Assembly: GCA_963700635.1 (NCBI GenBank)
Contig: CAVOYH010000001.1
Coordinates: 64,001 to 128,000, forward strand
Direction of reading: 5' to 3'
Source: an uncultured Bacteroidota bacterium
GTDB lineage: Bacteria > Bacteroidota > Ignavibacteria > UBA10030 > UBA6906
Length of the DNA stretch: 64,000 nucleotides
Part shown: positions 898 through 20,197 of the stretch, piece after piece
How the letters are laid out: each line of letters opens with the position of its first letter
Numbering within the stretch: the stretch's first letter is position 1
Notes under the pieces: generated by a model
Database searches by the model: none
Seen by the model: only the letters and a program-made list of their open reading frames with translations
What the model was told of the DNA's origin: nothing
Made by a program: the position numbers and the translations under genes

Positions 898-3636
898 GTG
901 AAAACCATTCTTTCGTTCATCCTGCTCCTGTGTCTGCTGGCGTCCGGCACATTGACCGCCGGCGATACGGGTAAAATCTCCGGTACCATCCGTGACAGGG
1001 AATCCAATGAACCTCTGCCCGGAGCGAATGTTGTCCTGATCGGGACGCCTCTTGGTGCGACCGGGGACGTTAACGGCTTCTATTTCATCAACCGCGTCCC
1101 ACCCGGCACCTATCGGGTTCAGGTAAGCCTCATCGGCTACCAGACGAAGGTGTTCACGGAGGTTCACGTGATGGCTGATGTCACCACCGAGCTGAGTGCT
1201 ACACTCAGCGGAACGGCCGTGGAACTGGGGACGGTGGAAATCACCGCTCACCGCCCGGTGGTGCAGAAAGATCAAACGGCCACACGGACAATCATTGACG
1301 GAGCAACCATCGTCAAAGATCTGCGCTTCCAGGATGTCGGTGAGATCCTCCGCCTGCAGGCGGGTGTCACGCTTGGAAACGATGGAAACCTGCACGTAAG
1401 GGGTGGCCGAACCGGGGGCATGGTATACCAGATCGACGGTATTCCAGTCCAGAACCCGCTCTTCCGCTCAACCGCCGGCGAGATTGAGGTTGAGAATGTC
1501 CAGGAGTTGCAGGCTCATCTGGGTACCTTTGACGCTGAATACGGCAACGCCGCCGATGGCGTGATCACGGTCTATACAAAGGACGGAGGTGATCGTATCA
1601 CCGGCCGGATCGGTTATGAGTCCCCCCGCCTGAACGCCTCACCCTATCAAAAATCTGACTGGAATCTGGACAGGCCGGAGGTTCAGGCATTGCCCGCGGA
1701 CCAGCAGGCACAGTACAAGGACGAGGTGCGAAAACCCGACGGCACATCGGCCTACGAGTATGTGGGCGTGCTGGATGATAAGCATGCGGAAGATCTGCTC
1801 CTGATCAAGGCCCTGGGCACATGGTCGGCCAATCTCTCGGGTCCTGTCCCGGGTCTTTCGGATATAAAATTTTATGCCACCGGACGTCTCCGTCAGGAAA
1901 ACAACAGCCTCCCCTACGGGTATACACTGCTTCGTTCTGCGACTCTGAAGCTGACCTATCCCATCACCACCGAGCTCTTGTTGCGTGGGTCAGTGGACCT
2001 CTCCAAAGCATACCGTCAGACGTACGACCACGCGTATAAATACTGGCGCTGGTGGGATGCCGGAATTGACCCGCTGGGGAGAACCGGAGGATATCCGATC
2101 AACACGGATCAGAGCAACAGGGAGATGTTGTCCATGCGGCACGTCCTCTCCTCAAGCACGTTTTATGATCTTTCCCTTGCGCGTATTTACGACTACACCG
2201 AGCTGGTTGTCCCGGATCGCACCGTGACGTATGATCCGGCAACGGGCAATCTTCTCACCAGCGATTATGTACGGAGACAATGGGTGGGCGGGAACGACTC
2301 GGGATTCCGGTACGGGGACGTCCGGTACTGGACAAACTCAAAGTCGACGCAGTTTCTGTTCAAAGGAAATCTGGAAAGTCAGATTCATCCAAGCCATCAA
2401 CTGCGGACAGGATTTGAGGCAAAGGTCCACGAGATCAGCCGTCACCGGATCGGCATGCCCACGTTGCCCACGCTGGAATTCTTCACCTACCGTCCGCTGG
2501 AAGCTGCTGCGTATTTTCAGGACAAGGTCGAGTACAGTTTTATGATCTTGAAGGCAGGCGTGCGGTTGGATTATTTTGACCCCCGCGCAACGGAATATCC
2601 GGATCCGGCAAAAATTATCGAAGTGATCACCGCACCCGGGGGATCGGCCCAGTATACGTCTATCCCCAAAGTGCCGGTAAAACAACATTTCCAGATCAGC
2701 CCGCGTATCGGAATTGCCCACCCCATCTCAGATAAGACATCCATTCATTTTGCGTACGGACATTTCTTCCAGATTCCCCGTTTCTACGATTTGTACCGGA
2801 ACGACGGGCTGCAGGATGTCCTCGTGAGTGATGCGCTTATCGGAAATCCGGGGTTAAAACCCGAGCGGACCGTTTCATTCGAGGTCGGACTTCAGCAGGA
2901 GCTCTCGCCGGAGTGGGGATTAAACGTCACTGCGTACTCCAAGGACATTACAAACCTGACATCCAGTTACTACTATTTTGTAGGACGGGATTACTCGATC
3001 TTTATCAATTCCGATTTTGCGAGGGTGCAGGGGATCGATATTACGCTTGATAAACGTTTCACGAACTTTTTCTCCGGACGATTGGTCTATTCGCTGATGA
3101 ATGCGATCGGAAACCATTCCGATCCGGCCGGCGGGTACACGTATCGCGAAGAGGAGGCGCACCTCCGTCCAAACCGCAACTACCCGCTGGATTTTGACCA
3201 GAGGCACAAAATTACGGGTACGGTCAGTGTCCGCCTGCCCGAACACTTTGGGCCGGAGCTCCTGGGTGTGTATCCGCTTGAACACCTCGCGGTGGCTTCC
3301 GTGTTCACGGTGGGAAGTGGTTTGCCATACACGCCCACTTCGCGTGCGTCGGAGGAAACGGGAATTGTCCCGGAACCCAATAGTGCCCGCCGCCCCTGGA
3401 CGTACAATCTTGATGTAAAACTTTCGCGCGAGATTCGTTTCTCCGGACTCCGTCTTACGGCCTATTGTGATGTGAGCAATCTTTTTGACCAGGTGAATAC
3501 GGTCTTTATCTGGAGCCGGACCGGCGAGCCGTGGGACGAAGGGTCAACATCGGTGCGCTCCAAAGATCGTCAGGCCAATCCCGAAAACGTCGGAACGCGG
3601 CGTATCGTCCGGGTCGGCGCCATTCTTGAATTTTGA
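898..3636 (+). CDS. TonB-dependent receptor with N-terminal carboxypeptidase-regulatory-like domain
   Basis: Signal peptide; GKISGTIRDRESNEPLPGANV; plug motifs LHVRGGR and FDAEYGNA; LKPERTVSFEVG; C-terminal beta-signal ending in F. Confidence 0.93.
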   Translation: MKTILSFILLLCLLASGTLTAGDTGKISGTIRDRESNEPLPGANVVLIGTPLGATGDVNGFYFINRVPPGTYRVQVSLIGYQTKVFTEVHVMADVTTELSATLSGTAVELGTVEITAHRPVVQKDQTATRTIIDGATIVKDLRFQDVGEILRLQAGVTLGNDGNLHVRGGRTGGMVYQIDGIPVQNPLFRSTAGEIEVENVQELQAHLGTFDAEYGNAADGVITVYTKDGGDRITGRIGYESPRLNASPYQKSDWNLDRPEVQALPADQQAQYKDEVRKPDGTSAYEYVGVLDDKHAEDLLLIKALGTWSANLSGPVPGLSDIKFYATGRLRQENNSLPYGYTLLRSATLKLTYPITTELLLRGSVDLSKAYRQTYDHAYKYWRWWDAGIDPLGRTGGYPINTDQSNREMLSMRHVLSSSTFYDLSLARIYDYTELVVPDRTVTYDPATGNLLTSDYVRRQWVGGNDSGFRYGDVRYWTNSKSTQFLFKGNLESQIHPSHQLRTGFEAKVHEISRHRIGMPTLPTLEFFTYRPLEAAAYFQDKVEYSFMILKAGVRLDYFDPRATEYPDPAKIIEVITAPGGSAQYTSIPKVPVKQHFQISPRIGIAHPISDKTSIHFAYGHFFQIPRFYDLYRNDGLQDVLVSDALIGNPGLKPERTVSFEVGLQQELSPEWGLNVTAYSKDITNLTSSYYYFVGRDYSIFINSDFARVQGIDITLDKRFTNFFSGRLVYSLMNAIGNHSDPAGGYTYREEEAHLRPNRNYPLDFDQRHKITGTVSVRLPEHFGPELLGVYPLEHLAVASVFTVGSGLPYTPTSRASEETGIVPEPNSARRPWTYNLDVKLSREIRFSGLRLTAYCDVSNLFDQVNTVFIWSRTGEPWDEGSTSVRSKDRQANPENVGTRRIVRVGAILEF

Positions 3637-3653
3637 TTCGCCACAGGATACGT

Positions 3654-6524
3654 ATGAAGACACCTCCTTTGATGTTCCGTTCCATTCTGCTGGGTTGCTG
3701 TGCGGTGTGTGTGCTCGCCGGTCAGCTCCGGGCTCAAGATGATGATCCGCCCCGTTCACCCACTGTTGTTCTGCCGAAGCGTGCAAGTTTCGCCGACGAA
3801 GCGATCGGGGTACAGACAAAAGGACAGTTGCAGAATCTGATTATGAACTATGGTCAGATTACCGATACACGATTTGCGGACGTCGGCAATGCCCCAACGG
3901 ACGTGTTCTTCAATATCCGTTACCCCCGTGAAAATTTCACGGGGCTGGTGGATGATTTTGCGCTCTTCTTTGCAATAAAGGAGAACAGCAAAAATGGTGA
4001 CAAGGGGAATGTCATTGACGGATGGACGGACGAAAAAAACGAGGATTGGGTCGCAAAGGATGGTGCCTATGGCAAGACACACTACAATGCGGCGCTTGAC
4101 CCCAACCCGCATGCCGAGTTGAAATACAACGGCCAGACCCCATACCTTGCGCATAGCGACCTCCCGGAAACCTGGCCGGTGGATAACACCGGAGTGGCCT
4201 TCTGGCCCGGAATCTTTCGCCGGGATCCGATCACCGGGATGGAAGTGCCCGGCGAGTTTGTTTCCGACCGCGACATCTATATGGAGTTTGATGACAAACA
4301 TAACCAGCTGGGCGACGTGGTCGGTATCGAAGTGCATGGCATGGCATACAGTTACGGACGTGTGTATGCCGAGAAGATGCTCTTTTATGAATTCTGGGTT
4401 ATTAACAAAAGCGGCAAAACTCTTAACGGCTGTTACTTCGGATCGTATCAGGATCCCGATTGTAGTGACCACACCGAAGAGGCACTCCTCTGGAAAGATT
4501 CCCTGTTTGCAGACGGAACCCGCGTCACATCGGTTGCGCAGCGTGATTTTGACGGGGACATCGGCGGGGCGACACGACCCAACGCGCGCGGCATCACGGA
4601 AGACTATACCTTCGGGACCATCGTATTTGAAACTCCGCGTGCTCTGGGCGTCACAGATTTTCACTACTTTGTAGATCCCGGGCCGGCCGATGATGCCTAT
4701 CTCTGGCCGATTATCTCCAGTGACCCCACAAATCCGCTTATCGCCGGGACCGCCGGCAACTATTTCCACGGTTCCAACCGGCGCATCGATGATGTTTCAC
4801 TCATCACAACCAAGCAGGATCTGGCCTGGATGATGTCAACCGGGCCGTTCTCGATGGCCCCCGGTGACACGGTAAAGTATTCGTTCGCGGTCATCGTTGG
4901 TGATGATGACGCGGACTATTACGCCAACGTATGGGAGGCCAAGAAACTCTACGATGCGTTGTACAACGGTCCGACTGCTCCACCGGCTCCCCGGCTTACG
5001 GCCATTCCCGGCGACGGCCGGGTGACATTGTACTGGGACGATACACCCGAGTCGGCGATCGACCCTTCGACCGGAGAGATGGATTTTGAGGGGTACAAGA
5101 TATACCGGAGCGAAGACGGCGGCATAACGTGGGGCACCAAGATCACCGACGCGCTGGGTCGTACGTACGGGTACGTCCCAGTTGCTCAATTTGATCTCAA
5201 GAACAACATCAAGGGTGCCGATCCCAAGAACTCGCTTGCCTGGCTGGGAACTGACAGTGGTCTCAGACATAGCTGGGTCGATAGTGCGGTCGTCACAGGC
5301 ATCACGTACTCCTATACCATTGTCTCATACGACCGCGGCACGCCAACATTGTATTCGCTGGAGACGACGCGGGGTGACGGGCCGCAGGTCAAAAATTTTG
5401 TCTCGGCCACTCCTCTCCCTCCGGCCAGCGGCAAGATCCCGGCGCGATTAAAAACCATGACGAAGACGCAGGGAACGGGCAAGGGAACAGTGACCGTGGA
5501 AGTGTTGGATGATCGGGCGCTGAAGACGGATCCCTACACGATCGTCATGGAAGGGACGCCGGCCCGCTCCTTCTCGGTTATCCGCCGCGATGGGAATAAC
5601 ACCAGAATCTATACCAGCAAACCGGTGAATTCCTCGGACCTGGCGGTGGCTGACGGATTTCGCGTCAGCGTGAACACGCAGGACCGGATCGGCGGAATCA
5701 CGGGCATCACTGACCAGGACGGAAATATTGTTGTCGGATCATCCAATCTGAGCCGGGATAGCTCCTGGTATGTAACGTATGCAGAAAACGCACAGGCCGA
5801 CACGCTGGCGCGCAGCTTCGATTACGAAATCCGGTTCGCCACCACAACTTCCATTGCCTACAGCTGGGGTGTTGCGGGGTCTGTCGCGAAATACAACGTC
5901 CCCTTTTCTGTCTGGAACACGACAACGAACACTCCCGTGGCATTTGAGATCAGAGATCTGAACAACAACAATCAGTGGGAGGAAGGGGAAGCGGTGTACA
6001 TCACCCGTGTGCCGTATCCGTCTCCCGCGCCGGCGATGGGTGCGGCAAACCCGGCCACCAACATCAAGGAATTCGCCTATCAGATACTGATCACCAACGC
6101 TCCGGCCGATACCGCCCGCCGGTTGCCGGTCGCCGGCACCGTGATCCGGGTCACCAGCTACAATGCACTGACGGACAACGACCGGTATGAATTTAGTTTC
6201 AGCCCCGCATCATTCGATGCCGGCGGCGTTGACCTGAGCGAGATCAGGGTTGTCCCGAATCCGTATATCGTCACATCGAAGTATGAATCCGAACAGAACG
6301 TCCGGCAGATCCGTTTTATGTATCTTCCGCCGGAATGCACGATTACCGTGTACACGGTGGCCGGAACGCGGGTGAAGACACTCACTCAGAGCAGCACCAC
6401 CGGATCCCTGAGTTGGAACCTGGTGACGGATTGGGGACAGGCGCTGGCGTTTGGCGTGTATGTGTATGTCGTAGAAGATCCCAGGGGCAACCGCCATATC
6501 GGAAAATTTGCGTTGATCAAGTGA
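3654..6524 (+). CDS. Large secreted protein with FN3-like domain and T9SS-like C-terminal domain (TBDR-associated cargo)
   Basis: Signal peptide; APPAPRLTAIPGDGRVTLYWD...DFEGYKIYRS (FN3-like); C-terminus IRVVPNPY...IRFMYLP...WNL...GVYVYVV...GKFALIK. ATG at 3654 preferred over TTG at 3633. Confidence 0.8.
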   Translation: MKTPPLMFRSILLGCCAVCVLAGQLRAQDDDPPRSPTVVLPKRASFADEAIGVQTKGQLQNLIMNYGQITDTRFADVGNAPTDVFFNIRYPRENFTGLVDDFALFFAIKENSKNGDKGNVIDGWTDEKNEDWVAKDGAYGKTHYNAALDPNPHAELKYNGQTPYLAHSDLPETWPVDNTGVAFWPGIFRRDPITGMEVPGEFVSDRDIYMEFDDKHNQLGDVVGIEVHGMAYSYGRVYAEKMLFYEFWVINKSGKTLNGCYFGSYQDPDCSDHTEEALLWKDSLFADGTRVTSVAQRDFDGDIGGATRPNARGITEDYTFGTIVFETPRALGVTDFHYFVDPGPADDAYLWPIISSDPTNPLIAGTAGNYFHGSNRRIDDVSLITTKQDLAWMMSTGPFSMAPGDTVKYSFAVIVGDDDADYYANVWEAKKLYDALYNGPTAPPAPRLTAIPGDGRVTLYWDDTPESAIDPSTGEMDFEGYKIYRSEDGGITWGTKITDALGRTYGYVPVAQFDLKNNIKGADPKNSLAWLGTDSGLRHSWVDSAVVTGITYSYTIVSYDRGTPTLYSLETTRGDGPQVKNFVSATPLPPASGKIPARLKTMTKTQGTGKGTVTVEVLDDRALKTDPYTIVMEGTPARSFSVIRRDGNNTRIYTSKPVNSSDLAVADGFRVSVNTQDRIGGITGITDQDGNIVVGSSNLSRDSSWYVTYAENAQADTLARSFDYEIRFATTTSIAYSWGVAGSVAKYNVPFSVWNTTTNTPVAFEIRDLNNNNQWEEGEAVYITRVPYPSPAPAMGAANPATNIKEFAYQILITNAPADTARRLPVAGTVIRVTSYNALTDNDRYEFSFSPASFDAGGVDLSEIRVVPNPYIVTSKYESEQNVRQIRFMYLPPECTITVYTVAGTRVKTLTQSSTTGSLSWNLVTDWGQALAFGVYVYVVEDPRGNRHIGKFALIK

Positions 6525-6527
6525 ACT

Positions 6528-7553
6528 ATGAAAACACTCCTCTGCATACTCGTGTCCGTCGTCTGTTCGGCGGGCAGTGCCTTCGGGCAACAGGATAACA
6601 AAGCCGGCACCACAGCGGCACAATTTCTCAAGATTGGCGTCGGCGCCCGTTCCATTGGCATGGCGGAAGCTGCGGTCGGACTTGTGGAAGACCCCAGCGC
6701 TATGTACTGGAACGTGTCGGGGTTGACCGGAGTCAACTCGGTGGCGGTGACCGCAACCCACACGAACTGGTTTGCCGACCTCACCCATCAGTATTTCGGG
6801 ATCGTGTTGCCGGTGGGAGACGATCACCGATTCGGTTTAAATGCCACGGTTCTGAACCTGGGGGAAATTGAGACCACCACGGAACAACAACCCCGGGGAA
6901 CAGGCACTTTTTTTAAGGCCACTGACGTGGCTATCGGGGTCTCCTATGCGGTGAGACTGGTGGACTTCTTTTCCTTCGGAGCCACCGTCAAGTTTGTCTC
7001 CCAGAGTATTGCGAACGAATCCGGATCAGCAATCGGAGCAGATCTGGGAACCACTCTCCGCACCGGATACAAGGGCATCACAATCGGCATGGCCTTTTCC
7101 AACTTCGGGACAGGCATGAAGCTGGATGGCAGGGATTTGCACAGGACCTATGATCCTCACCCGAACAATTCCGCCAACACCGGCGTATCGAGCTATCTCG
7201 GGACCGAATCCTGGGATCTGCCTGTCATGTTCCGCGTGGGTATCGGGTGGGAGCTTGTTGGTCCGGGAGAAGCACTGATGCAGGATGACATGCATGCTCT
7301 GCGGCTCGGTGTCGATGCGCGACATTCCAACGACGCGCCGGAAAATGCCAGTGTGGGCCTGGAGTATGTCTGGGAGCGCCTCGTCGCTCTGCGCGGCGGA
7401 TACTACTTTAATGATGATGTGCGCACGTGGAGTGCCGGAGCAGGCGTCCGCTGGCAATCCGCGAGTACGTTCGCTGTCGGCGTGGACTATGCGTACGCAA
7501 GTCTGGACCCGCTCGGACCTGTGCATGTGTTTACCCTGACGATGGGATTCTGA
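6528..7553 (+). CDS. PorV/PorQ family outer-membrane beta-barrel protein
   Basis: Hallmark N-terminus KAGTTAAQFLKIGVGARSIGMAEA...SAMYWN; alternating beta-strand pattern; terminal F. Confidence 0.9.
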   Translation: MKTLLCILVSVVCSAGSAFGQQDNKAGTTAAQFLKIGVGARSIGMAEAAVGLVEDPSAMYWNVSGLTGVNSVAVTATHTNWFADLTHQYFGIVLPVGDDHRFGLNATVLNLGEIETTTEQQPRGTGTFFKATDVAIGVSYAVRLVDFFSFGATVKFVSQSIANESGSAIGADLGTTLRTGYKGITIGMAFSNFGTGMKLDGRDLHRTYDPHPNNSANTGVSSYLGTESWDLPVMFRVGIGWELVGPGEALMQDDMHALRLGVDARHSNDAPENASVGLEYVWERLVALRGGYYFNDDVRTWSAGAGVRWQSASTFAVGVDYAYASLDPLGPVHVFTLTMGF

Positions 7554-7555
7554 GT

Positions 7556-8476
7556 ATGAGGGGGAACGTGCCAGGCGGGGCGACACTGTTCGTGTTGGGA
7601 ATCCTCCTTACGCTTTCGGCAACCGGATCCGGAATATCCTCCGAACCCGGGCAGCGAACCTCCCGGTTCGGCACGAACGGATACGTCGAGTATGTTCCGG
7701 GATCCATGCCCCTCATCATCACCATTCCACATGGCGGTACCCTGGAACCCGGCGAACTGCCGGATCGTATTTCGGGGACACTCAGCAGGTACGATACCAA
7801 CACGCTGGAACTTGGGCGCGCAATTGCCGCAGCTCTTTTCAGACAGACGGGACGTTCTCCGTATCTTGTCATCACCCATGTCCACAGAAAGAAGCTCGAC
7901 ACGAATCGCGAGGTCTTTGAAGCGGCGCAGGGTGATTCTCTGGCGAGCCTTGCGTGGGAGGAATTTCACGCGTTCATCCGGGAAGCAAAAGCCGAAGTGG
8001 TCCGTCACTTCGGATCCGGTCTCCTCGCGGATCTGCACGGACACCGTCACACGCGGCCGTGGGTGGAATTGGGATATGTGCTCTCGGCCGCACAGGCGTC
8101 ACTCCCTGATGATTCGCTCAACACACCGGATGTGGTTGCGGCATCGAGTATCGCCTCACTCGCCCGGATGCCGGGTAACTCCATGGCCGGACTGCTCCGC
8201 GGCCCGATGAGTCTTGGCGCGTTACTCGAAGAAGAGGGATATGAAGCTGTACCATCTCCCCGTAATCCTTTTCCCCGCCAAGATCACTATTTTGCGGGTG
8301 GATACAATACTGAACAACACGGGTCCCATGATGCAGGACCAATTGTAGCCATTCAGGTCGAAACACCCTGGCGCACCGTGCGTGATACAGAGATCCACCG
8401 GCAGAAGTTCGCGGACGCAGCATCCATCGCCCTGGTCCGATTTCTGGACATACATTTTGGATCGTATGGCGAATAG
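7556..8476 (+). CDS. Exported N-formylglutamate amidohydrolase-like Zn hydrolase
   Basis: Hydrophobic N-terminus; motifs PLIITIPHGG, HRKKLDTNR, DLHGH, YFAGGY, AIQVE. ATG lies 2 nt after the porV stop. Confidence 0.75.
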   Translation: MRGNVPGGATLFVLGILLTLSATGSGISSEPGQRTSRFGTNGYVEYVPGSMPLIITIPHGGTLEPGELPDRISGTLSRYDTNTLELGRAIAAALFRQTGRSPYLVITHVHRKKLDTNREVFEAAQGDSLASLAWEEFHAFIREAKAEVVRHFGSGLLADLHGHRHTRPWVELGYVLSAAQASLPDDSLNTPDVVAASSIASLARMPGNSMAGLLRGPMSLGALLEEEGYEAVPSPRNPFPRQDHYFAGGYNTEQHGSHDAGPIVAIQVETPWRTVRDTEIHRQKFADAASIALVRFLDIHFGSYGE

Positions 8477-8500
8477 AGTGCCTCCAATACTCTGTGCATT

Positions 8501-9526
8501 ATGAAATCCATCTCTCTGATAACTTTCCTGGCCGGCGTTATGGCGCTCGTCTCCCCTCCCGAATCCCCGGCCCGTGACTCCGTCCGGGTCCGCATCGCCC
8601 GTCTCGCTGAGAAAGACACCCTCACCGTACTGGTGACCGATTCCGGTCTGGGCGGCATTTCGGTGTGCGCTGATATAGAATCCCGCGCGCGACAGACGGG
8701 GATGTACAGTCAATTACGGATTATCTTCGCAAACGCCCTGCCGGAATCAAGTCAGGGCTACAATAAGATGAAGAGTACTGCCGAAAAGGTCCGGGTTTTT
8801 GACGCTGCCCTGCACGGGATGGCACGCTGGTACAAGCCCGATGTGATTCTCGTGGCATGTAACACACTCTCCGTGCTGATACCACAGACGACGTTTGTCG
8901 ATACCACATCGGTTCCGGTGCTCGGCATTGTGGAAACGGGGGTGGAGATGTTGTTCGAGCGGTTATCCGCTGACCCCAACTCATCAGCTGTCATTTTTGC
9001 CACGGAAACGACGATCGGCGCCGGCACGCATAGGAAGCTCCTTATTGAAAAAGGCATTGACTCCATGCGGCTGGTCCCTCAGGCATGCCCGGATCTTGCC
9101 GGTGAAATTGAGATGGACGCGGGGAGCGATCTGGTGTCCTCCTCCATCGGCGCGTTTGTCGGGGATGCTACTTTGCGTCTACGCACCGGAACAGCCAACG
9201 TGCTGGCAGGACTTTGCTGCACACATTATGGCTATGTGGCAAAAACATTTGAAGGGGCGCTGCGGGAGTGTGGAATCGAGGGCGTCGAAATTGTGGACCC
9301 GAATTCCCGCATGGGGGATATTCTCTTTCCGCCAGGAAAGCTCCGGCGCAGCGAAAAACCGGACATTCATGTCGCGGTTGTATCCCGTGCGATTATCGTG
9401 CCCGCAGAGATTTCATCGATCAGCACGCTGGTCGAATCGTTGTCGCCCGCGACCGCTGCGGCATTACGAACATATACAGTACAACGGGATCTGTTTATGT
9501 ACGGCACGACCGGCAGGCCGGAGTAG
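8501..9526 (+). CDS. Aspartate/glutamate racemase family protein (MurI-like) with N-terminal signal peptide
   Basis: DSGLGG, ACNT and CCTHY retain both catalytic Cys; ATETT; N-terminus MKSISLITFLAGVMALVS is signal-like. Confidence 0.85.
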   Translation: MKSISLITFLAGVMALVSPPESPARDSVRVRIARLAEKDTLTVLVTDSGLGGISVCADIESRARQTGMYSQLRIIFANALPESSQGYNKMKSTAEKVRVFDAALHGMARWYKPDVILVACNTLSVLIPQTTFVDTTSVPVLGIVETGVEMLFERLSADPNSSAVIFATETTIGAGTHRKLLIEKGIDSMRLVPQACPDLAGEIEMDAGSDLVSSSIGAFVGDATLRLRTGTANVLAGLCCTHYGYVAKTFEGALRECGIEGVEIVDPNSRMGDILFPPGKLRRSEKPDIHVAVVSRAIIVPAEISSISTLVESLSPATAAALRTYTVQRDLFMYGTTGRPE

Positions 9527-9583
9527 CAGAGATCACATCGGGTGGGTCAAACCGGGAACGTGCCCGGAACAACAGGGGACAAT

Positions 9584-9853
9584 ATGGCTGAAGAAAAAAA
9601 GAAAAAGATCGCAGGCTCGGTGGTGATCTCCGTCGAACGGTGCAAGGGATGCGGGTTTTGCGTGGAATTCTGCCCACCGCGCGCACTCAAACTCTCCGAA
9701 CAATACAACGTCAAAGGCTATCATCCACCGGCCCTGATCTCGAAGGAGATGTGCAACGGATGTAACATGTGCGGTTTACTCTGCCCGGATTTTGCCATCT
9801 ACGGGTTCCTTCTGAACAAGAAGGTCGGAAAGGGAGGACACCGTGAAGGCTGA
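9584..9853 (+). CDS. korD: 2-oxoacid:ferredoxin oxidoreductase delta subunit (2x[4Fe-4S] ferredoxin)
   Basis: Two CxxCxxCxxxCP motifs (CKGCGFCVEFCP, CNGCNMCGLLCP); overlaps the alpha subunit gene. Confidence 0.88.
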   Translation: MAEEKKKKIAGSVVISVERCKGCGFCVEFCPPRALKLSEQYNVKGYHPPALISKEMCNGCNMCGLLCPDFAIYGFLLNKKVGKGGHREG

Positions 9854-11894: not shown

Positions 11895-11896
11895 CC

Positions 11897-12433: not shown

Positions 12434-12520
12434 TTCCCACCGTCCCGGCGCCGATGATACAGAGCAGTTCTGTGGAGAACAGCGTGAAGGCATACTCATG
12501 AAACATCTGCGGATGGTGTA

Positions 12521-13792
12521 GTGCCGTCGGAACTCATCATACTTCTGACCATGCTCGCGGTGTTTGCCGCCGGTGTGTTCTGGTGGAAAATCCCTGCGGG
12601 GCTTTCGCTCGCCCTTTCTTCCATCGCAGGTGCGCTGGTGGGAGGATACGGTGTACCGGTGCGCCATCTTGTGGAAGGCACGTTTGGCTATCTTGACGCC
12701 GTGCTGATCATCGCCACCGCGATGATTTTTATGAAGGCGATCGAAGCCAGCGGGGCGCTCGGAACCATCAGCTATGCCATGATCCGATCGCTCTACCGCT
12801 GGCCCACGCTGCTGATGATCCTTGTGGTGCTCTTTATTATGTTTCCGGGCATGCTTACGGGTCTCTCCTCTGCATGCATACTGACAACAGGCGCTCTGGT
12901 GACACCCGCACTGTTGGCCATGGGGATGCCCCCGGTTGCGGTTGGTTCCCTCGTGGCAATGGCCGCCGTGTACGGCATGACAGCGCCCCCGATAAACATT
13001 CCCGTCATGATCATCGGGGGAGGGGTGGATATGCCGTATATCGGTTTTGAGATTCCGCTTCTTCTCGCGACCATGCCCCTTGCCCTGGTAACTGCTGTGT
13101 ATTTTCGGGTTCGGTACGTTCGCACCATTGACCCCGTTGCGGTTCTGGCAAAACTCCCGGCGTCGGTGTACGGGCGTCATGGGATGAAGCTGTTTCTCCC
13201 GCTGGTTGTGGTGGTGGGACTGATGATCGCCGTGCGGGTGGTGCCGGCCTGGATGCCGGATATAGGGGTGCCGCTGATCTTTCTCCTCGGCGCGCTGGCG
13301 GCGTGGGGGACGGGGGAGAAGATCAACCTTCTCAAGGTTTCCCGGATCGCTTTCCGGGAAGCACTCCCCATTATGACCATCCTCGTCGGCGTGGGGATGT
13401 TTGTCCAGATAATGACCCTGACCGGCGTACGGGGCTTTATTGCTGTCAGTGCGCTGCAATTGCCTGCCGCTCTCCTGTATCTCGGGATTGCAGCGATTAT
13501 GCCGGCTTTTGGCTCCGCCTACGCGGCATCTTCGGTGCTCGGCGTGCCCCTGGTGTACGTTTTCCTCGGACGGAACGAGATCATGGTATCGTCAGCACTT
13601 TCCCTTATCGCGGGATTGGGGGACCTGATGCCGCCCCCCTCGTTGCTGTGCGTCTTTGCCGCACAATTAGTCGGGGAGAAGAATCACTTCCGTATTCTCA
13701 AGGAAAGCCTCCCCCTTATCGTGCTCTCGCTTGTCGTGGGGATAACAATGATCATCTATGCGGCCCAGCTCGGGTCACTTTTCCGCTACTAA
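12521..13792 (+). CDS. TRAP-type (DctM-like, ion transporter superfamily) large permease subunit
   Basis: About 12 hydrophobic segments; GMTAPPINIP and GDLMPP motifs; context with AstE-like and DUF6305 genes. Confidence 0.75.
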   Translation: MPSELIILLTMLAVFAAGVFWWKIPAGLSLALSSIAGALVGGYGVPVRHLVEGTFGYLDAVLIIATAMIFMKAIEASGALGTISYAMIRSLYRWPTLLMILVVLFIMFPGMLTGLSSACILTTGALVTPALLAMGMPPVAVGSLVAMAAVYGMTAPPINIPVMIIGGGVDMPYIGFEIPLLLATMPLALVTAVYFRVRYVRTIDPVAVLAKLPASVYGRHGMKLFLPLVVVVGLMIAVRVVPAWMPDIGVPLIFLLGALAAWGTGEKINLLKVSRIAFREALPIMTILVGVGMFVQIMTLTGVRGFIAVSALQLPAALLYLGIAAIMPAFGSAYAASSVLGVPLVYVFLGRNEIMVSSALSLIAGLGDLMPPPSLLCVFAAQLVGEKNHFRILKESLPLIVLSLVVGITMIIYAAQLGSLFRY

Positions 13793-13806
13793 GAACAGGA
13801 GTGTGT

Positions 13807-13953
13807 GTGCTGCACTGGGTCTACATCGGTCTGGCTCTTTATTGCGCGGGTGTGCTGGTTGTCGAGTTGTTCAGCGAGAAACGCTGGCGGGAACAACTTG
13901 CGTTAGCGCTTATTCTTATTCCGTTTGTCCTACGAATCCTGCATATCAAGTGA
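13807..13953 (+). CDS. Small two-helix membrane protein (48 aa)
   Basis: SD aggag then GTG at 13807; MLHWVYIGLALYCAGVLVVELFSEKRWREQLALALILIPFVLRILHIK; fills the gap exactly, and its stop overlaps the next GTG (GTGA). Confidence 0.7.
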   Translation: MLHWVYIGLALYCAGVLVVELFSEKRWREQLALALILIPFVLRILHIK

Positions 13954-15083
13954 CGCGGCCCATTACATCGTTTCACCACGTGAGGGCTCTGGCCCTGCTG
14001 ATCCTGGCCGGAGTGGTCTGCGTCGTGGCGGGTTCGGAATTTATGGCCATGTGGTCCCCCGACACGCTGTATCCTTCACGCGCACTCAGCAGAGTGGACT
14101 CACTGAGCACATACTGTCCGTCCCTACGGGGCACGCGGGCAGAAACGCGTGTGTATGTGTTCGAGAGTGATCTCCCCGGGCCGACGTTCCTGGTGCTTGG
14201 CGGCACGCATCCCAATGAACCTGCCGGATTTATTGCGGCCACAGTACTGCTGGAGAACCTCGTGCTTCAAGCCGGACGATGTATCATCATTCCACAGGCA
14301 TGTGAAAGCGGATTCACATGCACGGATCCGCTGGAAGGCTCGCCCCAGACGTTTTCCCTGGTCACGGCAAGCGGCAGGCGCACGTTCAGGTTCGGGGGAA
14401 GGGCCGCAAATGTAGTGGATCAATGGCCGGATCCCCTTGTCTACCTTCATTATCCGTCAGGACAGCAACTCTCCGGCAATGAAACCAGAAATCTGAACCG
14501 GGCGTATCCCGGCCGGCCGGACGGCTCGCTCACCGAGCGGACGGCGTATGCGATTGTAACCCTGATCGAGCGGGAGCATGTGGATTTTGCCGTGGACCTC
14601 CATGAGGCCGCACCGGAGATCCCGATCATCAACGCGATCATTACGCACGAAAAGGGACGGGATCTGGCGGCCAGCGCGGTGCTGAATCTGGAGTTCGAAG
14701 ACCTTCAGTATGCGCTTGAGCTCTCTCCGGAAAATTTTCGGGGCTTGAGTCATCGCGAATGGGGAGACGGGACCCCGGTCATTCCATTTCTTATGGAGAC
14801 GAGCAATCCGATTCAGGGACGACTGCGCGGCCGCACCTCGGAGCAGCTCATTGTGAACGGGGTTGACCCGTGGTACAAGATCGCCGAACAATTGGGAACC
14901 ATGCGGATCACCTACGATCCGGCAGGCGAACCGCTGGCGCGGAGGGTCGGACGCCATCTGCAGGGACTCCGCGCGCTGATCGACGCGTACAATACCGAAC
15001 ATCCCGAGACACCGCTTCTGCTCGGAGAATTACCCGGTTACACACAACTCATGGAACACGGAGTGGAACGGTACCTCCGGTAA
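13950..15083 (+). CDS. Succinylglutamate desuccinylase/aspartoacylase (M14-like Zn hydrolase), membrane-anchored or exported
   Basis: GGTHPNE (HxxE), RNLNRAYPG, VDLHEA; N-terminal hydrophobic helix. Confidence 0.85.
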   Translation: MTRPITSFHHVRALALLILAGVVCVVAGSEFMAMWSPDTLYPSRALSRVDSLSTYCPSLRGTRAETRVYVFESDLPGPTFLVLGGTHPNEPAGFIAATVLLENLVLQAGRCIIIPQACESGFTCTDPLEGSPQTFSLVTASGRRTFRFGGRAANVVDQWPDPLVYLHYPSGQQLSGNETRNLNRAYPGRPDGSLTERTAYAIVTLIEREHVDFAVDLHEAAPEIPIINAIITHEKGRDLAASAVLNLEFEDLQYALELSPENFRGLSHREWGDGTPVIPFLMETSNPIQGRLRGRTSEQLIVNGVDPWYKIAEQLGTMRITYDPAGEPLARRVGRHLQGLRALIDAYNTEHPETPLLLGELPGYTQLMEHGVERYLR

Positions 15084-15130
15084 TGACACTATTGACCAAT
15101 CACGCACACACGATACAGTATATGGAGATC

Positions 15131-15688
15131 ATGATGAACCGACTGACCTTTTTCCGGCTTGTTCTTTTCCTGGTGGTGGCTGCAACAGTACAGGGTGTCT
15201 CACAGGACAAACCGGCCTTCAAGGCACCCATCCTCATTACTTCCGCCGGCCAGAGCGCCGATGTAAGTCTTGCCGGCAATCTCTGTAAGAGAGCGGGACT
15301 GGAAGCCAGGGTGGTGCCAACGGCCTCCGCAGCGGACCTAAAAGGGTTCAAGACAGTTATGATTGTTGCCGGATTCAGTTCCAAGGGACTCGGGGCAGCC
15401 GGCACAAGCCGCGAGCAGGAGCTGGACCGGGTGAAGAACCTGGTCATCGCAGCACAAAAAGCCGGGCTGCCGATCTTGACGCTGCATATCGGCGGCAAAG
15501 CGCGACGGGGGAGCCAGTCGGACGACTTTAACAAGCTCGCGGCAGATGCCGCCCTGCATCTCATCGTGGTCACCCAGGGTGACGAAGATGGCTTCTTTAC
15601 AAAGATAGCACGAGAGCGTAAAGTGAAGCTGGAATTGGTCGATAAGATTGTCGGAGTAGTGGCTCCCCTTTCTGCGGCATTCAAATAG
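15131..15688 (+). CDS. DUF6305 family exported protein
   Basis: Signal peptide; PILITSAGQSAD, GFSSKGLGAAG, HIGGKARRG, GDEDGFF resemble DUF6305; SD ggag before the ATG. Confidence 0.72.
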   Translation: MMNRLTFFRLVLFLVVAATVQGVSQDKPAFKAPILITSAGQSADVSLAGNLCKRAGLEARVVPTASAADLKGFKTVMIVAGFSSKGLGAAGTSREQELDRVKNLVIAAQKAGLPILTLHIGGKARRGSQSDDFNKLAADAALHLIVVTQGDEDGFFTKIARERKVKLELVDKIVGVVAPLSAAFK

Positions 15689-15726
15689 AGTCAGGCAGGA
15701 GTGGTTTTTTTAACGGAGAAAGACGT

Positions 15727-17550
15727 ATGCGGAGAGAGCGTATGATGAACGGGAGACCGATCTTTTGGTGCCTATTGACATTTCTCTGTCTGTCGCTGAC
15801 CGTGTCGTCGCAGACTGTACCCGGCGGCGCACATACCGTTGTCGCAACCGGAACAAAAGGGATGGCCGCCACGGCCCACCCCCTGGCTTCTGAAGCTGCA
15901 ATCATCATGCTGCAGCGCGGAGGAAATGCGGTTGATGCTGCGGTTGCGGCGACTTTTGCAATCGGTGTTGTCGAGCCGGATGGTTCTGGACTCGGTGGAG
16001 GGGGAGGAGCGCTGATCTACCTCGCAAAGGAAAAGAAGGCCGTCTATATAAACTTCTACCCGTGTGCCTCATCGGACGTGACCAGTCTGTCGCCGTATTC
16101 CCGCAGTGATGCTCAGACCGGAAAGGCCATCCTTGTTCCAGGGACTGTTGCAGGGCTTACGCTCGCACTCGAACGATACGGGACCCTGCCGCTCGCAACG
16201 GTTCTCGGGCCGGCTATCCGGCTTGCACGGGACGGCTTTCCGATTGACGAGACGCTGGGGAGGATTATCCTGGACAACGTCCCGCTGGTGCAACGGGATT
16301 CCGCCACCGCAGCGATCTACCTGCGCGATGGGTTTCCGTTGATGGAAGGTGATACGCTCCGCCAGCCCGAGCTCGCGAAAACCCTCACCGCCATCGCCAT
16401 AGAAGGGCGTGCAGGCTTCTATGAGGGTCCCATTGCACGGACGATCGTGAATGATGTACGCCGTGCGGGAGGAGCGATGACCCTGGAGGATCTCCGTCGT
16501 ACAACAGCACAGGTGCTGGAGCCCCTGCATGGCACCTACCGCGGCTACAGTGTCCTCACCACCCCGCCTCCGCAGTCCGGTCCGCTTGTGCTGGAAGCGT
16601 TAAACATTCTGGAGAACGAGCAGCTTGCTGCGCTCGGGCGCTTCGACTCCTCCGGTCAAGCAATGCACCTTATTGCTGAAACCTTCCGGCGCGTGTATGC
16701 CGATCGTACGTCATTTCTTGCCGATCCACGTTTTGAGCACGTGCCGGTCCGTGGTCTGATCGACAAAGCGTATGCGCGCAGCCGTATGGATGATATCAAC
16801 CGGTTCAAGGCAGATCCCCCGGAGTACAGAAAGACACGTTCAGGGAATCCGGCTGCGTATCAGACCGGAGAGCCGAACCGGGACACGTCTCGAGTGTCCA
16901 GGCCCGCCGGAGTCGGGAAAAGTCAGGAGAGCAGGGACGACGATAACGGATCATCCTCCGGGATGAAGCATGGTATCGACGCCGGAACAGAAAGGGATGG
17001 ACATACGACACATCTGGGCGTTATGGACAGAGAGGGGAATGTTGTTTCGCTTACCCAGACACTGGGAACGTTTTTCGGATCGGGGGTGACGACAGCCGGC
17101 GTGCTCATGAACAATGCTATGTCCAATTTTGCCACCACCGTGTCGCGCAATGCGATGGAGCCAGGCAAACAACCACGAAGCTCCATAGCGCCAACCATTC
17201 TTCTAAAAAATGGTGAACCCTTCATGTCTGTTGGTTCACCCGGCGCAACCCGCATCATTGCAACGGTTGTTCAGCTTATCGTGAACATTGTGGACTACGG
17301 GATGACGGCAGAGGATGCAAATGCCGCCCCCAGATTCTTCTGCCAGAAAGCGGATGATTACCTGCATTGTGAGGGACGGATTAGCGAGCAGGTACAGGAA
17401 GACCTCAAGAAAAGAGGGCACGCGCTCCGTGTGTACGGCGATTATGATCTTTTTTTTGGCGGAGCCCAGATTATTCTCCGCGATCCCTCAACCGGACTGC
17501 TCTCGGGTTCTGCTGATCCCCGGCGGGGTGGAGTCGCTTTAGGATACTGA
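15727..17550 (+). CDS. ggt: Gamma-glutamyltransferase (GGT/CapD-like), exported
   Basis: GGNAVDAAVA, EPDGSGLGGGG, VPGTVAG, autocleavage HTTH (Thr at 17005), PRSSIAP, GSPG, DPRRGG; signal peptide. Confidence 0.93.
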   Translation: MRRERMMNGRPIFWCLLTFLCLSLTVSSQTVPGGAHTVVATGTKGMAATAHPLASEAAIIMLQRGGNAVDAAVAATFAIGVVEPDGSGLGGGGGALIYLAKEKKAVYINFYPCASSDVTSLSPYSRSDAQTGKAILVPGTVAGLTLALERYGTLPLATVLGPAIRLARDGFPIDETLGRIILDNVPLVQRDSATAAIYLRDGFPLMEGDTLRQPELAKTLTAIAIEGRAGFYEGPIARTIVNDVRRAGGAMTLEDLRRTTAQVLEPLHGTYRGYSVLTTPPPQSGPLVLEALNILENEQLAALGRFDSSGQAMHLIAETFRRVYADRTSFLADPRFEHVPVRGLIDKAYARSRMDDINRFKADPPEYRKTRSGNPAAYQTGEPNRDTSRVSRPAGVGKSQESRDDDNGSSSGMKHGIDAGTERDGHTTHLGVMDREGNVVSLTQTLGTFFGSGVTTAGVLMNNAMSNFATTVSRNAMEPGKQPRSSIAPTILLKNGEPFMSVGSPGATRIIATVVQLIVNIVDYGMTAEDANAAPRFFCQKADDYLHCEGRISEQVQEDLKKRGHALRVYGDYDLFFGGAQIILRDPSTGLLSGSADPRRGGVALGY

Positions 17551-17559
17551 GATTTTTTT

Positions 17560-18705
17560 ATGGTCACCGTTGCCGTTCTTCTGGGTCTGGTTTGTGCGGC
17601 ACTTGGTGTCGAGAGATACGTGGTGCACAAACGTGTCTCTGCGCTCCGTGTACGCATCCATGTGGGCGGAACGCGGGGGAAATCCAGCGTCGTCAGGTAT
17701 ATTACCGCGGCATTACGAGATCAGGGTTACCGGGTTCTCGGCAAAGTGACAGGCGAGACGCCGATGGTTCTCCTGCCTGATGGGCGAAGAGAACTCCTTC
17801 GCAGGCGCGGCCCCGCACGTGTTCAGGAGCAGGTGCGCATGCTGCGCCTGACGAAGAAACACTCCTGCGACGCACTGGTCCTGGAATGTATGTCCCTGAA
17901 CCCCCTCCTGCAGTCTCTCGAATCACGTATCCTGCGACCGACTCTCTCTGTTTTGACCAACATTCTGGACGACCACCGGGAAGAATTCGGATCTACACCG
18001 GATACGCAGGCAGAGGCGCTGTGTTCATTCTTCCCTTCCCGTTCCGTACTCGTCTCCAACGAACTCCTCTATGCAGACCTTGTGGCATCACATGCCGCGC
18101 GGAAACGTACCCGGGTGGTTCGCGCCGAAGGTGCTACGATGGACCTTCCGGCTGTCCTTCCTCCCGGGGTATTTCGCGGAAACATAGCGCTGGCACTGAA
18201 CGTGTGTGATGAGCTGGGGCTCGACCGCGCCGGAGCGATGACGGCGATTCTCGAAGAGATCCGGACTACAATCGGACCACTTTCCACCCTTACCCCATCG
18301 GCCGCCAGCATATCCTTCCTGAATGGTTTTGCCGTGAATGATGTCCCGTCTGCCCGGAAATTTCTTGCAGAGTGGAGGGTTCATGCCAAGAACTCCCGGT
18401 CCATGGTTTTCATCCTGAATACCCGGGCAGATCGGCCACTCCGCTCGCTTCAATTTGCCAGGTGGTGCGGCACACTGACGGATCTTGATCACGTGGTGGT
18501 AACGGGAACCCACCGTGCCAGAACCCGGAGAGCGTTACGGGCGAGCGGGATACAAAACCACCGCATCACGGCATGGTCACGGCGTGATGTGCATGATCCC
18601 CTGAACGCCCTGGGCCGTCTGCAGTTACCGGAGGGTTGTCTGGTGGTAGGTCTCGGGAATATCGCCGGCGACGGATTCAGCATTCTCAAAGGAATCCAAC
18701 GATGA
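17560..18705 (+). CDS. pgsB: Poly-gamma-glutamate synthase PgsB/CapB
   Basis: N-terminal TM; RIHVGGTRGKSSV P-loop; LECM; TNILDDH; NGFAVND; NTRADRPLRS; GLGNIAG. Confidence 0.9.
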   Translation: MVTVAVLLGLVCAALGVERYVVHKRVSALRVRIHVGGTRGKSSVVRYITAALRDQGYRVLGKVTGETPMVLLPDGRRELLRRRGPARVQEQVRMLRLTKKHSCDALVLECMSLNPLLQSLESRILRPTLSVLTNILDDHREEFGSTPDTQAEALCSFFPSRSVLVSNELLYADLVASHAARKRTRVVRAEGATMDLPAVLPPGVFRGNIALALNVCDELGLDRAGAMTAILEEIRTTIGPLSTLTPSAASISFLNGFAVNDVPSARKFLAEWRVHAKNSRSMVFILNTRADRPLRSLQFARWCGTLTDLDHVVVTGTHRARTRRALRASGIQNHRITAWSRRDVHDPLNALGRLQLPEGCLVVGLGNIAGDGFSILKGIQR

Positions 18706-19127
18706 TCATAGAGGCGCTCTTTATCGGACTGGTGGTGGGTTTCCTTTTCTATGAATGGATCGGCTACTCCCCTGGCGGGGTGGTGGCGCCGGGGTACCTT
18801 GCGCTGTTCGTCACAGAACCCCAGCGTATACTTGTGACCGTTCTGCTTGCATGTATTGTCTGGGGCATACTGCAGATTCTGTCCGGATCCCTGATTCTGT
18901 ATGGCAGACGCCGGTTACTCCTCGCGCTGCTCCTGGGATTTGGGGCGACCCTGGCCGTTGAGCTGTGGGTACAACCCGTCGGCGGCATTGCCATCGATGT
19001 GCAGTCCATCGGTTATATCATCCCCGGCCTTGTCGCCCATGAAATGGTGAGGCAGAAGGTGGTCCCCACTCTCGCCAGTCTCGGGATTGTCACCGTGGTT
19101 GTTGCATTGATTCTGATGTTATGGTGA
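18702..19127 (+). CDS. pgsC: Poly-gamma-glutamate biosynthesis membrane protein PgsC/CapC
   Basis: GYSPGGVVAPGYLAL, LYGRRR, IGYIIPGLVA; ATGA overlap with the pgsB stop. Confidence 0.92.
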   Translation: MIIEALFIGLVVGFLFYEWIGYSPGGVVAPGYLALFVTEPQRILVTVLLACIVWGILQILSGSLILYGRRRLLLALLLGFGATLAVELWVQPVGGIAIDVQSIGYIIPGLVAHEMVRQKVVPTLASLGIVTVVVALILMLW

Positions 19128-20197
19128 GGGCCGGGGTGACCACTGCGCGGTTGAACGTCCGCCTGCTTGTTCTGCTGGGCATCGCCGTCCTTTTCCTGTT
19201 GTTCGCGCGAAACATGCTCGTGCACCGCGTTGAACGTCCTGACAGGATGGAGATGCGTCAGGCGGAGATCCTTGCGGGCCGGTGGTTCGAGATCATTGAG
19301 GCACGGAAAGAAAAGGCGGGAATTGTCGGAGACGCAGGATCATCAATTCCTCATGCAGGCATGCTGGGTGCGGAGTGGTCTGAAGGCACGACGACACTTG
19401 GCTCGCTTGAAGCCAAACGCACTGCTGCCAACCCGCGCTTTGCGGCATTGATGGTTCGGCTCCTGCATGATGCCGGAGTGGATTCATCCTCCACGGTGGG
19501 TGTTCTTCTTTCTGGATCGTTTCCCACTCTGGCGATAGTTTCCCTTGCCGCCGTGCAGACCATCGGAGCCCGGGCTCTGGTTTTGAGTTCTCTGGGGGCC
19601 TCGTCTTACGGAGCGAATCAGCCCGGCGCGACGTGGCTGGATATGGAGAAATGGCTTGTGGAGGAAGGCGGACTCCGACGCAGTTCCGCGCTTCTGACGA
19701 TGGGTGCCGAGGGCGACAGCGGCGGCGGTTTGTCCGAAGAGGGAATCCGCATGTTTCACGCAGCCGCCGTCCGGAACGGTGTACCCCTGAGCGGTTTTTC
19801 GTCATTCGAAGAAGCCTTGCAGAAGAAGGAGGAGATGCTCCTCTCCGCCCGCATTCACGCACTGGTAAACGTCGGTGGAAACCAGACAAGTCTCGGAACA
19901 TGCCAGCATGCACCCACGCTGCCCACAGGCCTCTGCCTGCGTCGCTTGCACTGCACGGATCCCGGTCGGGGGTTGATCGAACGGTTTTCAGGACGTGGTG
20001 TTCCGTTTATTCATCTTCTCCATATCAGGAACATCGCATCCCGGTATGGTCTGCCCTTGTTGCCGGGAGCGCATGTACCCGGGTCTGAAAACGATGATAT
20101 GTCTGTGCGTTCGACGGTTCGCCGTGTTCCGGTAATGCTCTTGATCATCACGTTTATTGTGCTGCTTGTTGTGTCCCGCCCGTCTTCCCCCCGCTAA
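19121..20197 (+). CDS. pgsW: Poly-gamma-glutamate system protein (PgsW type)
   Basis: TTTLGSLEAKRTAANP, SGSFP, SSLGASSYGAN, NVGGN, PFIHLLHIRNIASRYGLP; N- and C-terminal TM helices; follows pgsC. Confidence 0.85.
   Translation: MVRAGVTTARLNVRLLVLLGIAVLFLLFARNMLVHRVERPDRMEMRQAEILAGRWFEIIEARKEKAGIVGDAGSSIPHAGMLGAEWSEGTTTLGSLEAKRTAANPRFAALMVRLLHDAGVDSSSTVGVLLSGSFPTLAIVSLAAVQTIGARALVLSSLGASSYGANQPGATWLDMEKWLVEEGGLRRSSALLTMGAEGDSGGGLSEEGIRMFHAAAVRNGVPLSGFSSFEEALQKKEEMLLSARIHALVNVGGNQTSLGTCQHAPTLPTGLCLRRLHCTDPGRGLIERFSGRGVPFIHLLHIRNIASRYGLPLLPGAHVPGSENDDMSVRSTVRRVPVMLLIITFIVLLVVSRPSSPR

Follow-up and report, generated by a model that had tools for sequence, protein, structure and literature searches.

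The DNA analyzed here, a 64,000-nucleotide (nt) stretch from an uncultured Bacteroidota bacterium which we call the window (source genome G000; 4.2-Mb assembly, 56% GC), carries 17 open reading frames (ORFs) at positions 898–20197, all on the + strand and separated by intergenic gaps of −11 to +87 nt. The conserved unit within this run comprises eight genes rather than 17, encoding a gamma-glutamyltranspeptidase (GGT), a DUF6305 protein, a DctM-like permease, a 48-amino-acid (aa) protein, an M14 peptidase, and the PgsB, PgsC and PgsW proteins (PgsBCW) of a poly-gamma-glutamate (gamma-PGA) synthase. We lean, if only slightly, toward the reading that the locus is an inducible system which both produces gamma-PGA and, outside the inner membrane, wins glutamate back from it, with a docked peptidase feeding a carrier. 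Only as a tentative proposal, built on a structural model, do we suggest that this carrier is a TRAP-type transporter in which a membrane-anchored zinc peptidase replaces the binding protein and the 48-aa protein acts as a clamp, such that glutamate from gamma-PGA would be passed straight in.

A first-pass annotation made from the sequence alone had listed 17 co-oriented, tightly spaced genes in the order recovered here, and the ORF calls and gap lengths bear this out. Its gene labels likewise stand in Pfam and NCBIfam searches, several of them (FGase-like hydrolase, racemase, DctM-like permease) with scores under the cut-off. The boundaries it drew, 898 to 20197, enclose 17 real genes but are too narrow, as the co-oriented run is longer on both sides, beginning with a propeller gene 729 nt before the window and ending at 23128 after three genes past pgsW.

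An eight-gene core and its dependence on pgsBCW

In the window, the core opens with the DctM-like permease of the IT superfamily (12521–13792; PF06808, 23.4 against a cut-off of 23.8), followed by the 48-aa two-helix membrane protein (hereafter the mini-protein; 13807–13953), the membrane-anchored zinc peptidase of the M14/AstE family (13950–15083; PF24827), the exported Rossmann-like DUF6305 domain (15122–15688; DUF6305 match with its invariant residues), and the exported GGT (15727–17550; TIGR00066, 444 against 358). The synthase genes come last: the PgsB amide ligase (17560–18705; TIGR04012, 243.9 against 222.7), PgsC (18702–19127; TIGR04011, 103.4 against 96.45) and PgsW (19121–20197; TIGR04332, 268.9 against 100). 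These three are adjacent, overlapping and all above curated cut-offs, and PgsB has its P-loop and family motifs intact.

Species-representative genomes were scanned with an alignment of the peptidase, and the best 80 of at least 524 confirmed relatives, from 77 genomes, form our set of loci; phylum names are those of the submitters' record titles, and many loci stop at a contig edge. The core spans about eleven phyla, including Calditrichota, Zixibacteria, Marinimicrobia, Spirochaetes, Fusobacteria and Bacillota, and Varibaculum, and is found in monoderms too (records titled Clostridium tetanomorphum, Halanaerobiales and Varibaculum). Within 10 kb of the peptidase gene, the permease was present at 77 of the 80 loci, GGT at 74, DUF6305 at 72 and pgsB at 45; at the 32 loci of at least 19 kb the corresponding figures are 32, 31, 30 and 23. 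Because the genomes are related, these are counts and not statistics. In 75 of 77 loci the gene for the mini-protein is flanked by those for the permease and the peptidase. Those three genes are nearly always contiguous, while the remaining order is reshuffled with linkage kept: Clostridium, Fusobacterium and Treponema share the order GGT-DUF6305-permease-mini-peptidase-pgsBCW, and pgsBCW is inverted in some others. The same core is present at two loci of Fusobacterium sp. (L111 and L126). The synteny search that the first-pass annotation had proposed for the Fibrobacteres–Chlorobi–Bacteroidetes (FCB) bacteria thus recovers a conserved neighborhood, which reaches far beyond that group. Accessory genes within 10 kb of the peptidase are the FGase-like hydrolase at 18 loci, the racemase at 15, a family that we call A5 at 22, and a four-subunit oxidoreductase at 1. 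Diderm loci supplement the core with interchangeable parts, namely one of two outer-membrane entries, the racemase, FGase-like hydrolases and a sigma-54 two-component system. The entire run from TonB-dependent receptor (TBDR) to pgsW is kept in close relatives (G001 and G033, and as far as pgsB in G008) and also in G280, from another family.

Fusions of PgsW with the peptidase (P0202) and of the peptidase with DUF6305 (P0238) serve as supporting evidence only, since each is a single sequence. Correlations of 0.64–0.86 among distance matrices of core genes (37 loci) were not counted as co-evolution, there being no housekeeping control. A second, more divergent M14 peptidase, sometimes with a second GGT, occurs at eight loci (L094, L110, L116, L118, L123, L125, L148 and L149). 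Several genomes carry two paralogous modules, and G001 has two near-identical copies (C16 and C22).

The five core genes other than pgsBCW (hereafter the module) need the synthase, and the synthase does without the module. Either pgsB or pgsW is held by 74 of the 77 module genomes. Where pgsB is missing from the locus (34 genomes), 29 genomes carry it at another site and a further 2 carry pgsW, and in five of nine distant pgsB regions inspected, pgsB is adjoined by another copy of the module or part of one. An even sample of the phylum (301 genomes) yielded five strong DUF6305 matches, all among the eight genomes with pgsW; weak matches in G346 and G234 were discarded as noise. Across 61 relatives the permease occurs in seven, each with pgsB, and pgsBCW stands alone in five more. 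Module genes are therefore almost never found in genomes that have neither pgsB nor pgsW, in agreement with the linkage of hydrolases and transporter to pgs genes drawn in the first-pass annotation. Stand-alone pgsBCW genes from the same class (L042–L046, L155 and L156) are ~30% identical to those of the window, often follow a gene with a type IX secretion system (T9SS) tail, and form a separate PgsB group in a quick tree.

This linkage invites another explanation, in which the module serves synthesis, with processing and housekeeping duties in a PgsBCW capsule system. GGT would then anchor the polymer in the manner of CapD, the mini-protein, which has the size of CapE, would be a CapE-like assembly factor, the peptidase would trim chains or clear the periplasm, the permease would supply or return glutamate, and the racemase would set the D/L content. 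That the module is almost never seen without pgs genes is in keeping with such roles, as are the PgsW-peptidase fusion, the anchoring of polymer by CapD and the stimulation of synthesis by PgsE/CapE (PMC4497714, PMC3815933). However, pgsBCW also stands alone without the whole module; the mini-protein gene is linked to those for permease and peptidase rather than to pgsBC, and the predicted binding partner of its product is the peptidase anchor; GGT scores 345 bits with Bacillus GGT versus 167 with the CapD large chain; and TBDRs, secreted hydrolases and a sigma-54 two-component system are better suited to induced uptake. We consider this explanation unlikely.

Peptidase, mini-protein and permease as a predicted complex

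Peptidase residues H87, E90, H218, R184 and E283 are invariant in 53 aligned sequences, and the protein keeps the M14 ligands (H-x-x-E...H), an N-x-x-R motif and a catalytic-type glutamate, with roles assigned by analogy. All but one of the 68 members of the permease family match PF06808 at E ≤0.01, the best of them at 6e-16. The sole PDB sequence match of the window permease is a weak one to DctMQ (9pym, E 0.26), making it unlikely that the structural model recalls a solved complex. By inspection the mini-protein forms two helices.

Co-folding of permease, mini-protein and peptidase gave a complex score of 0.87, compared with 0.56 for the best of three controls. Of 157 solved complexes 116 attain the mark used for this score, as do 2 of 215 mismatched pairs; these figures carry over only roughly to a three-chain job with custom alignments. 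At least 85% of contacts were common to the runs, and the pLDDT of the partners was at least 87. The control scoring 0.56 still contained the mini-protein, which fits a contact between mini-protein and peptidase. In the predicted complex, peptidase residues 9–32 pack against the mini-protein and permease, and residues 123–133, 154–178, 223–225, 291–296 and 308–319 touch conserved permease motifs, several of these stretches being themselves conserved motifs beside active-site residues. The model thus supports binding, and we predict that the peptidase docks on permease and mini-protein, with the mini-protein clamping the peptidase anchor.

Like the TRAP transporters (DctPQM), the locus encodes a DctM-like large subunit and a small membrane partner. 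It differs from them in that Pfam and NCBIfam scans of the window proteins returned no match to a DctP or TAXI binding protein, none being recurrent in the 80 neighborhoods, nor to DctQ (the mini-protein lay outside that scan), and in that an anchored peptidase is predicted on the outer face. The docked peptidase is predicted to take the place of the TRAP binding protein.

DUF6305 has invariant K, R, H, S and G residues on what is modeled as a small Rossmann-like domain, and it is possibly anion-binding. A role as periplasmic binding protein gained no support, as none appeared in its top 50 fold matches, which were generic Rossmann only (Z ≤10.1); an Atlas search returned DUF6305 clusters only. 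GGT has the catalytic threonine of an N-terminal nucleophile (Ntn) hydrolase, with small-subunit matches starting at residue 427. Export leaders were judged from N-terminal hydropathy. The N-termini of GGT, DUF6305, the M14 peptidase, the racemase and the FGase-like hydrolase are hydrophobic (best 12-residue mean 2.4–3.2, against 0.7–1.4 in the subunits of the oxidoreductase), which agrees with the five signal- or anchor-bearing proteins first proposed.

Accessory genes, substrate and control

Upstream of the core lies a signal-bearing N-formylglutamate-amidohydrolase (FGase)-like zinc hydrolase (7556–8476; PF05013, just below cut-off). Its model (pLDDT 95) best matches an FGase fold (Z 19.1, root-mean-square deviation (rmsd) 2.7, 210 residues aligned), with a second FGase at Z 18.1, followed by PghP (Z 12.3, rmsd 2.9, 164 aligned) and YndL (Z 11.8); it therefore has the zinc-hydrolase fold of PghP/YndL (PF05908), but FGases score higher. 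Relatives also carry T9SS-tailed FGase-like copies. The FGase-like, M14/AstE and GGT families act on N-acyl- or gamma-glutamyl bonds, and all three hydrolase types in the locus are assigned to such families by family or fold. The A5 family is represented upstream of the window (L134:11545-12948, equivalent to G000:C1:61545-62948) by a T9SS-secreted domain with the motifs PHP, QxHG and HxEQ. Neither Pfam nor PDB gave a match to it. By motif it aligns to the FGase-like family (probability 44–56%), and its assignment to PghP was rejected, the HHalign score of 17.9 falling within the 10.3–24.7 spanned by 30 column shuffles.

The accessory MurI-like racemase (8501–9526; PF01177, below cut-off) has both catalytic cysteine motifs (aligned to 1b73), and both CNT and a hydrophobic leader are found in 15 of 15 homologues. 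It scores below the MurI equivalog cut-off (44.5 against 146.65), and a separate cytoplasmic MurI, without a leader, is encoded at G000:C3:424879. The racemase, presumed to act on glutamate, is a second, signal-bearing MurI-like copy; the first-pass annotation had called it exported.

The next four genes (9584–12433) encode a 2-oxoacid:ferredoxin oxidoreductase (labeled KOR), with delta at 9584–9853, alpha at 9843–11006, beta at 11010–11894 and gamma at 11897–12433. The alpha subunit passes the generic model NF006412 and fails the 2-oxoglutarate model NF007206 (369 against 579); for beta and delta the 2-oxoglutarate models score best, yet below cut-off. The four subunits are as initially annotated, with 2-oxoglutarate as a putative substrate. 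KOR is a genus-level insertion, found in the locus in G000, G001 and G004 only, and at 1 of 80 loci it was rejected as part of the conserved system in which it had been placed. In G001 a DUF1611 gene, which we take to be the D-glutamate N-acetyltransferase DgcN, lies between KOR and the permease (L032:9054-10160).

These enzymes would also fit a different external glutamyl compound as substrate (peptidoglycan stem peptides with gamma-D-Glu, glutathione or N-acyl-glutamates), the module harvesting its glutamate and PgsBCW storing the surplus. The M14 family includes gamma-D-Glu-diaminopimelate (DAP) peptidases; the FGase-like protein is nearer to FGase than to PghP; the exported racemase and the DUF1611 gene of G001, if it encodes DgcN, point to D-Glu of any source; and the outer-membrane cassette and A5 hydrolase also occur without pgs genes. 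We think this improbable: among gene clusters present in at least three loci, inspected by eye in the 80 neighborhoods, there was no recurrent amidase, Ala-Glu epimerase or amino-sugar gene, and the near-obligate linkage to pgsBCW is simpler if the substrate is shared.

The outer-membrane cassette begins before the window with a 520-aa BNR/beta-propeller protein with a T9SS tail (gene start G000:C1:63271; its 3' half at 33–833, + strand), likely the first gene of the locus. The accessory TBDR follows (898–3636; PF00593), then a 956-aa secreted cargo protein with a T9SS-like tail and no Pfam match (3654–6524) and a PorV/PorQ-family barrel (6528–7553; NF033709, 204 bits against a cut-off of 90). 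The TBDR scores 61.7 with the SusC model TIGR04056 (cut-off 368), and no window protein matches SusD. Atlas clusters for the cargo are unnamed or T9SS-labeled; it is likely a surface partner of the TBDR, with the barrel likely its dedicated shuttle or anchor. The propeller-TBDR-cargo-PorV cassette occurs at 22 loci and a porin with a lipoprotein at 14, with both at a single locus, and this near-exclusive distribution makes them likely two solutions for the same job. A propeller orthologue stands beside the TBDR at 11 of 80 loci. The porin set, seen at L086:6515-7795, L077:1688-3550 and 12 other loci, consists of a 427-aa barrel-like protein and a ~620-aa lipoprotein directly before the permease; the 427-aa barrel has no Pfam or NCBIfam match and no PDB match at E ≤10.

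The 17 genes could also be independent units brought together by chance, with a generic TBDR-cargo-PorV cassette followed by separate units for KOR, peptide uptake and pgs. At least a dozen TBDR/cargo/PorV paralogue sets (18 PorV and 18 cargo tblastn segments on C1, C3 and C5) are present in the source genome along with two other oxidoreductase sets, and KOR and the tail downstream of pgsW are confined to close relatives. Set against this, the core is linked across about eleven phyla despite its reshuffled order, an upstream motif is shared among loci, and the cassette genes are reciprocal orthologues in varied positions (upstream, downstream or inverted). Their best matches are the window copies for TBDR in 13 of 16 cases, cargo in 15 of 16 (the miss being a boundary artefact) and PorV in 15 of 15, so that the cassette is an orthologous set traveling with the locus, as the inclusion of the outer-membrane genes in the first-pass annotation implied. 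For the whole run, chance is very improbable; chance juxtaposition holds for KOR and the tail only and is refuted for the core. In this lineage the many TBDR/cargo/PorV sets may themselves be a counterpart of SusC/SusD in which each cargo has a PorV of its own.

The co-oriented tail (20225–23128, + strand) encodes a 266-aa protein, an EamA transporter and a threonine-synthase-like enzyme, is found in close relatives only (3 of 80 loci) and is probably outside the system. The 266-aa protein (20225–21025) has no family match, and its position after pgsW is limited to close relatives, two of which (G001 and G033) have an extra gene behind it that is kynureninase-like by eye. Farther downstream, 23502–33011 encodes a secreted protein of 3169 aa that combines ten choice-of-anchor-Z repeats with a FlgD/T9SS-like tail.

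Upstream of the locus, G000:C1:52.7-62.9 kb encodes a sigma-54 response regulator, a histidine kinase, an aspartase-like lyase with a cyclic nucleotide monophosphate (cNMP) domain, a C45-like Ntn hydrolase, a large M14 peptidase and the A5-family protein. The lyase, of aspartase/fumarase type with an N-terminal cNMP-binding domain, lies between kinase and C45-like hydrolase at L134:5793-7658 and occurs also in L037. The genome, which encodes RpoN, has 14 strict matches to a sigma-54 site, among them one at G000:C1:63131, 140 nt before the propeller gene. The sigma-54 two-component system is found near the module elsewhere too (kinase at 18 of 80 loci, regulator at 19). In a first test the strict sigma-54 score picked out 4 of 39 loci versus 1.8% in shuffles; a relaxed motif precedes the first gene at 14 of 19 loci versus 38 of 1238 background windows, a count that excludes L065 and L073, which lacked a start, and in which the starts of the five misses are approximate. 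This regulatory system, the genes in the upstream half of the locus and the predicted peptidase-mini-permease complex had all escaped the first-pass annotation.

A sigma-70 promoter scan of 500–20400 gave 13 predictions against 10.4 ± 3.6 in shuffles, and a terminator scan of the same interval 25 against 15.9 ± 4.5, with no strong U-tailed hairpin in the internal gaps. The initial statement that no clear internal terminator exists is thus upheld inside the gaps, but a strong GC-rich hairpin with a weak U-tail (842–867, + strand; z −2.98) follows the propeller gene and precedes the TBDR, where an attenuator or RNA-stabilizing stem is possible. The next strong hairpin downstream comes after 23128.

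Mechanism, known systems and meaning

In the interpretation that we favor, the sigma-54 two-component system would turn the operon on. T9SS-secreted FGase-like hydrolases would cleave the polymer at the surface, and oligomers would enter via the TBDR cassette or the alternative porin and be trimmed by GGT and the FGase-like enzyme. The exported racemase would convert D-Glu to L-Glu, and the docked peptidase would free terminal glutamate into the carrier. At glutamate surplus PgsBCW would rebuild the polymer, which would thereby serve as a cell-held store of nitrogen and carbon or as a recyclable coat. In the source genus, the inserted oxidoreductase would tie glutamate to central metabolism.

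Several points weigh against this interpretation. Gene content, order, conservation, catalytic motifs and co-occurrence are observed, but in genomes that are related rather than independent samples; substrate, activity, transport direction, localization and expression are inferred. The relaxed sigma-54 pattern was picked post hoc, once the alignment had been seen. A pure scavenging module would be expected in non-producers too, and only 3 of 77 genomes, all drafts, lack pgs genes. Conversely, pgsBCW occurs without the module in 3 of 8 genomes of the phylum sample and 5 of 12 among the relatives, so that not every synthase requires it. The A5 hydrolase is present in 24 of 301 phylum genomes, just 3 of them with pgsW, and G050 has an orthologue of the cassette (50–60% identity) with permease and pgsB not found, on a contig that ends at PorV. 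By profile, the nearest solved relatives of the peptidase are an acetyl-diaminobutyrate deacetylase and uncharacterized AstE proteins, then 4wcm/4q6m of Helicobacter pylori, presumably the peptidoglycan peptidase Csd4, so that other N-acyl substrates are possible. Membership of the hydrolases in the PghP family was also rejected: HHalign gave probabilities of 35–41% for the FGase-like protein and <1% for M14 and A5, and PF05908 had 0 matches in G000 at E ≤10. The likeness to PghP noted in the first-pass annotation therefore does not extend to family membership for any of them. A scan of viral contigs with a PghP homologue found no match.

By test the locus is a pgsBCW system; it would work like a polysaccharide utilization locus (PUL) and a TRAP carrier and belongs to neither. 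With the PgsBCW-type systems of PMC3815933 and PMC4497714 the locus shares the three synthase genes, from which systems it differs by five further conserved genes and by exchangeable outer-membrane, racemase and regulator genes, the module going unmentioned in the accessible portions of both papers. As in Bacillus capBCADE and pgsBCAE-pgdS, the synthase has as neighbors a gene of the GGT family or for a hydrolase and one for a very small membrane protein; the differences are PgsW in place of PgsA, a GGT that by bit score is nearer to ordinary GGT than to CapD, a dedicated permease and an M14 peptidase. Cyanophycin clusters (cphA-cphB-cphZ and the aot operon) likewise combine synthase, depolymerase and an M14/AstE-type isopeptide hydrolase, the hydrolase lying beside a transporter. 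There CphZ, annotated as M14/AstE, hydrolyzes an isopeptide dipeptide. The polymer is another one, all our hydrolases carry export or anchor leaders, and CphZ, unlike our module, is common in non-producers (PMC9974463). With PULs the locus shares a TBDR, surface proteins, periplasmic hydrolases, an inner-membrane carrier and a sensor, but it has no SusC/SusD pair, includes a polymer synthase and has its core in monoderms too. As a diderm-specific PUL, the system first envisaged does not stand, with a core in monoderms, a TBDR that fails the SusC model and no SusD match.

A literature search, within the openly available papers, found no description of the module and no paper for pgsW with poly-gamma-glutamate, TIGR04332, DUF6305 or a TRAP/peptidase pairing. 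Fusobacterium nucleatum makes PGA, and the distribution of PgsBC has been published (PMC3815933 and PMC4497714). Cultured carriers of the system exist (records titled Clostridium tetanomorphum and Treponema vincentii).

The system offers a testable job for DUF6305, for the unannotated 48-aa gene and for the large 'succinylglutamate desuccinylase' family. Further targets are the signal-bearing MurI-like racemase and the two interchangeable outer-membrane entries, one of them an uncharacterized porin family. If our proposal is true, the docking of a peptidase on a TRAP-like carrier would couple hydrolysis with uptake in a new way, and together with PgsBCW the complex would provide an extracytoplasmic, inducible glutamate store in anaerobes from about eleven phyla, Fusobacterium and Treponema of the mouth and gut among them. 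The system is also relevant to how D-glutamate is cycled in anoxic habitats, and it suggests that gamma-PGA in many non-Bacillus bacteria may be a reserve that is turned over, and not a shield alone.

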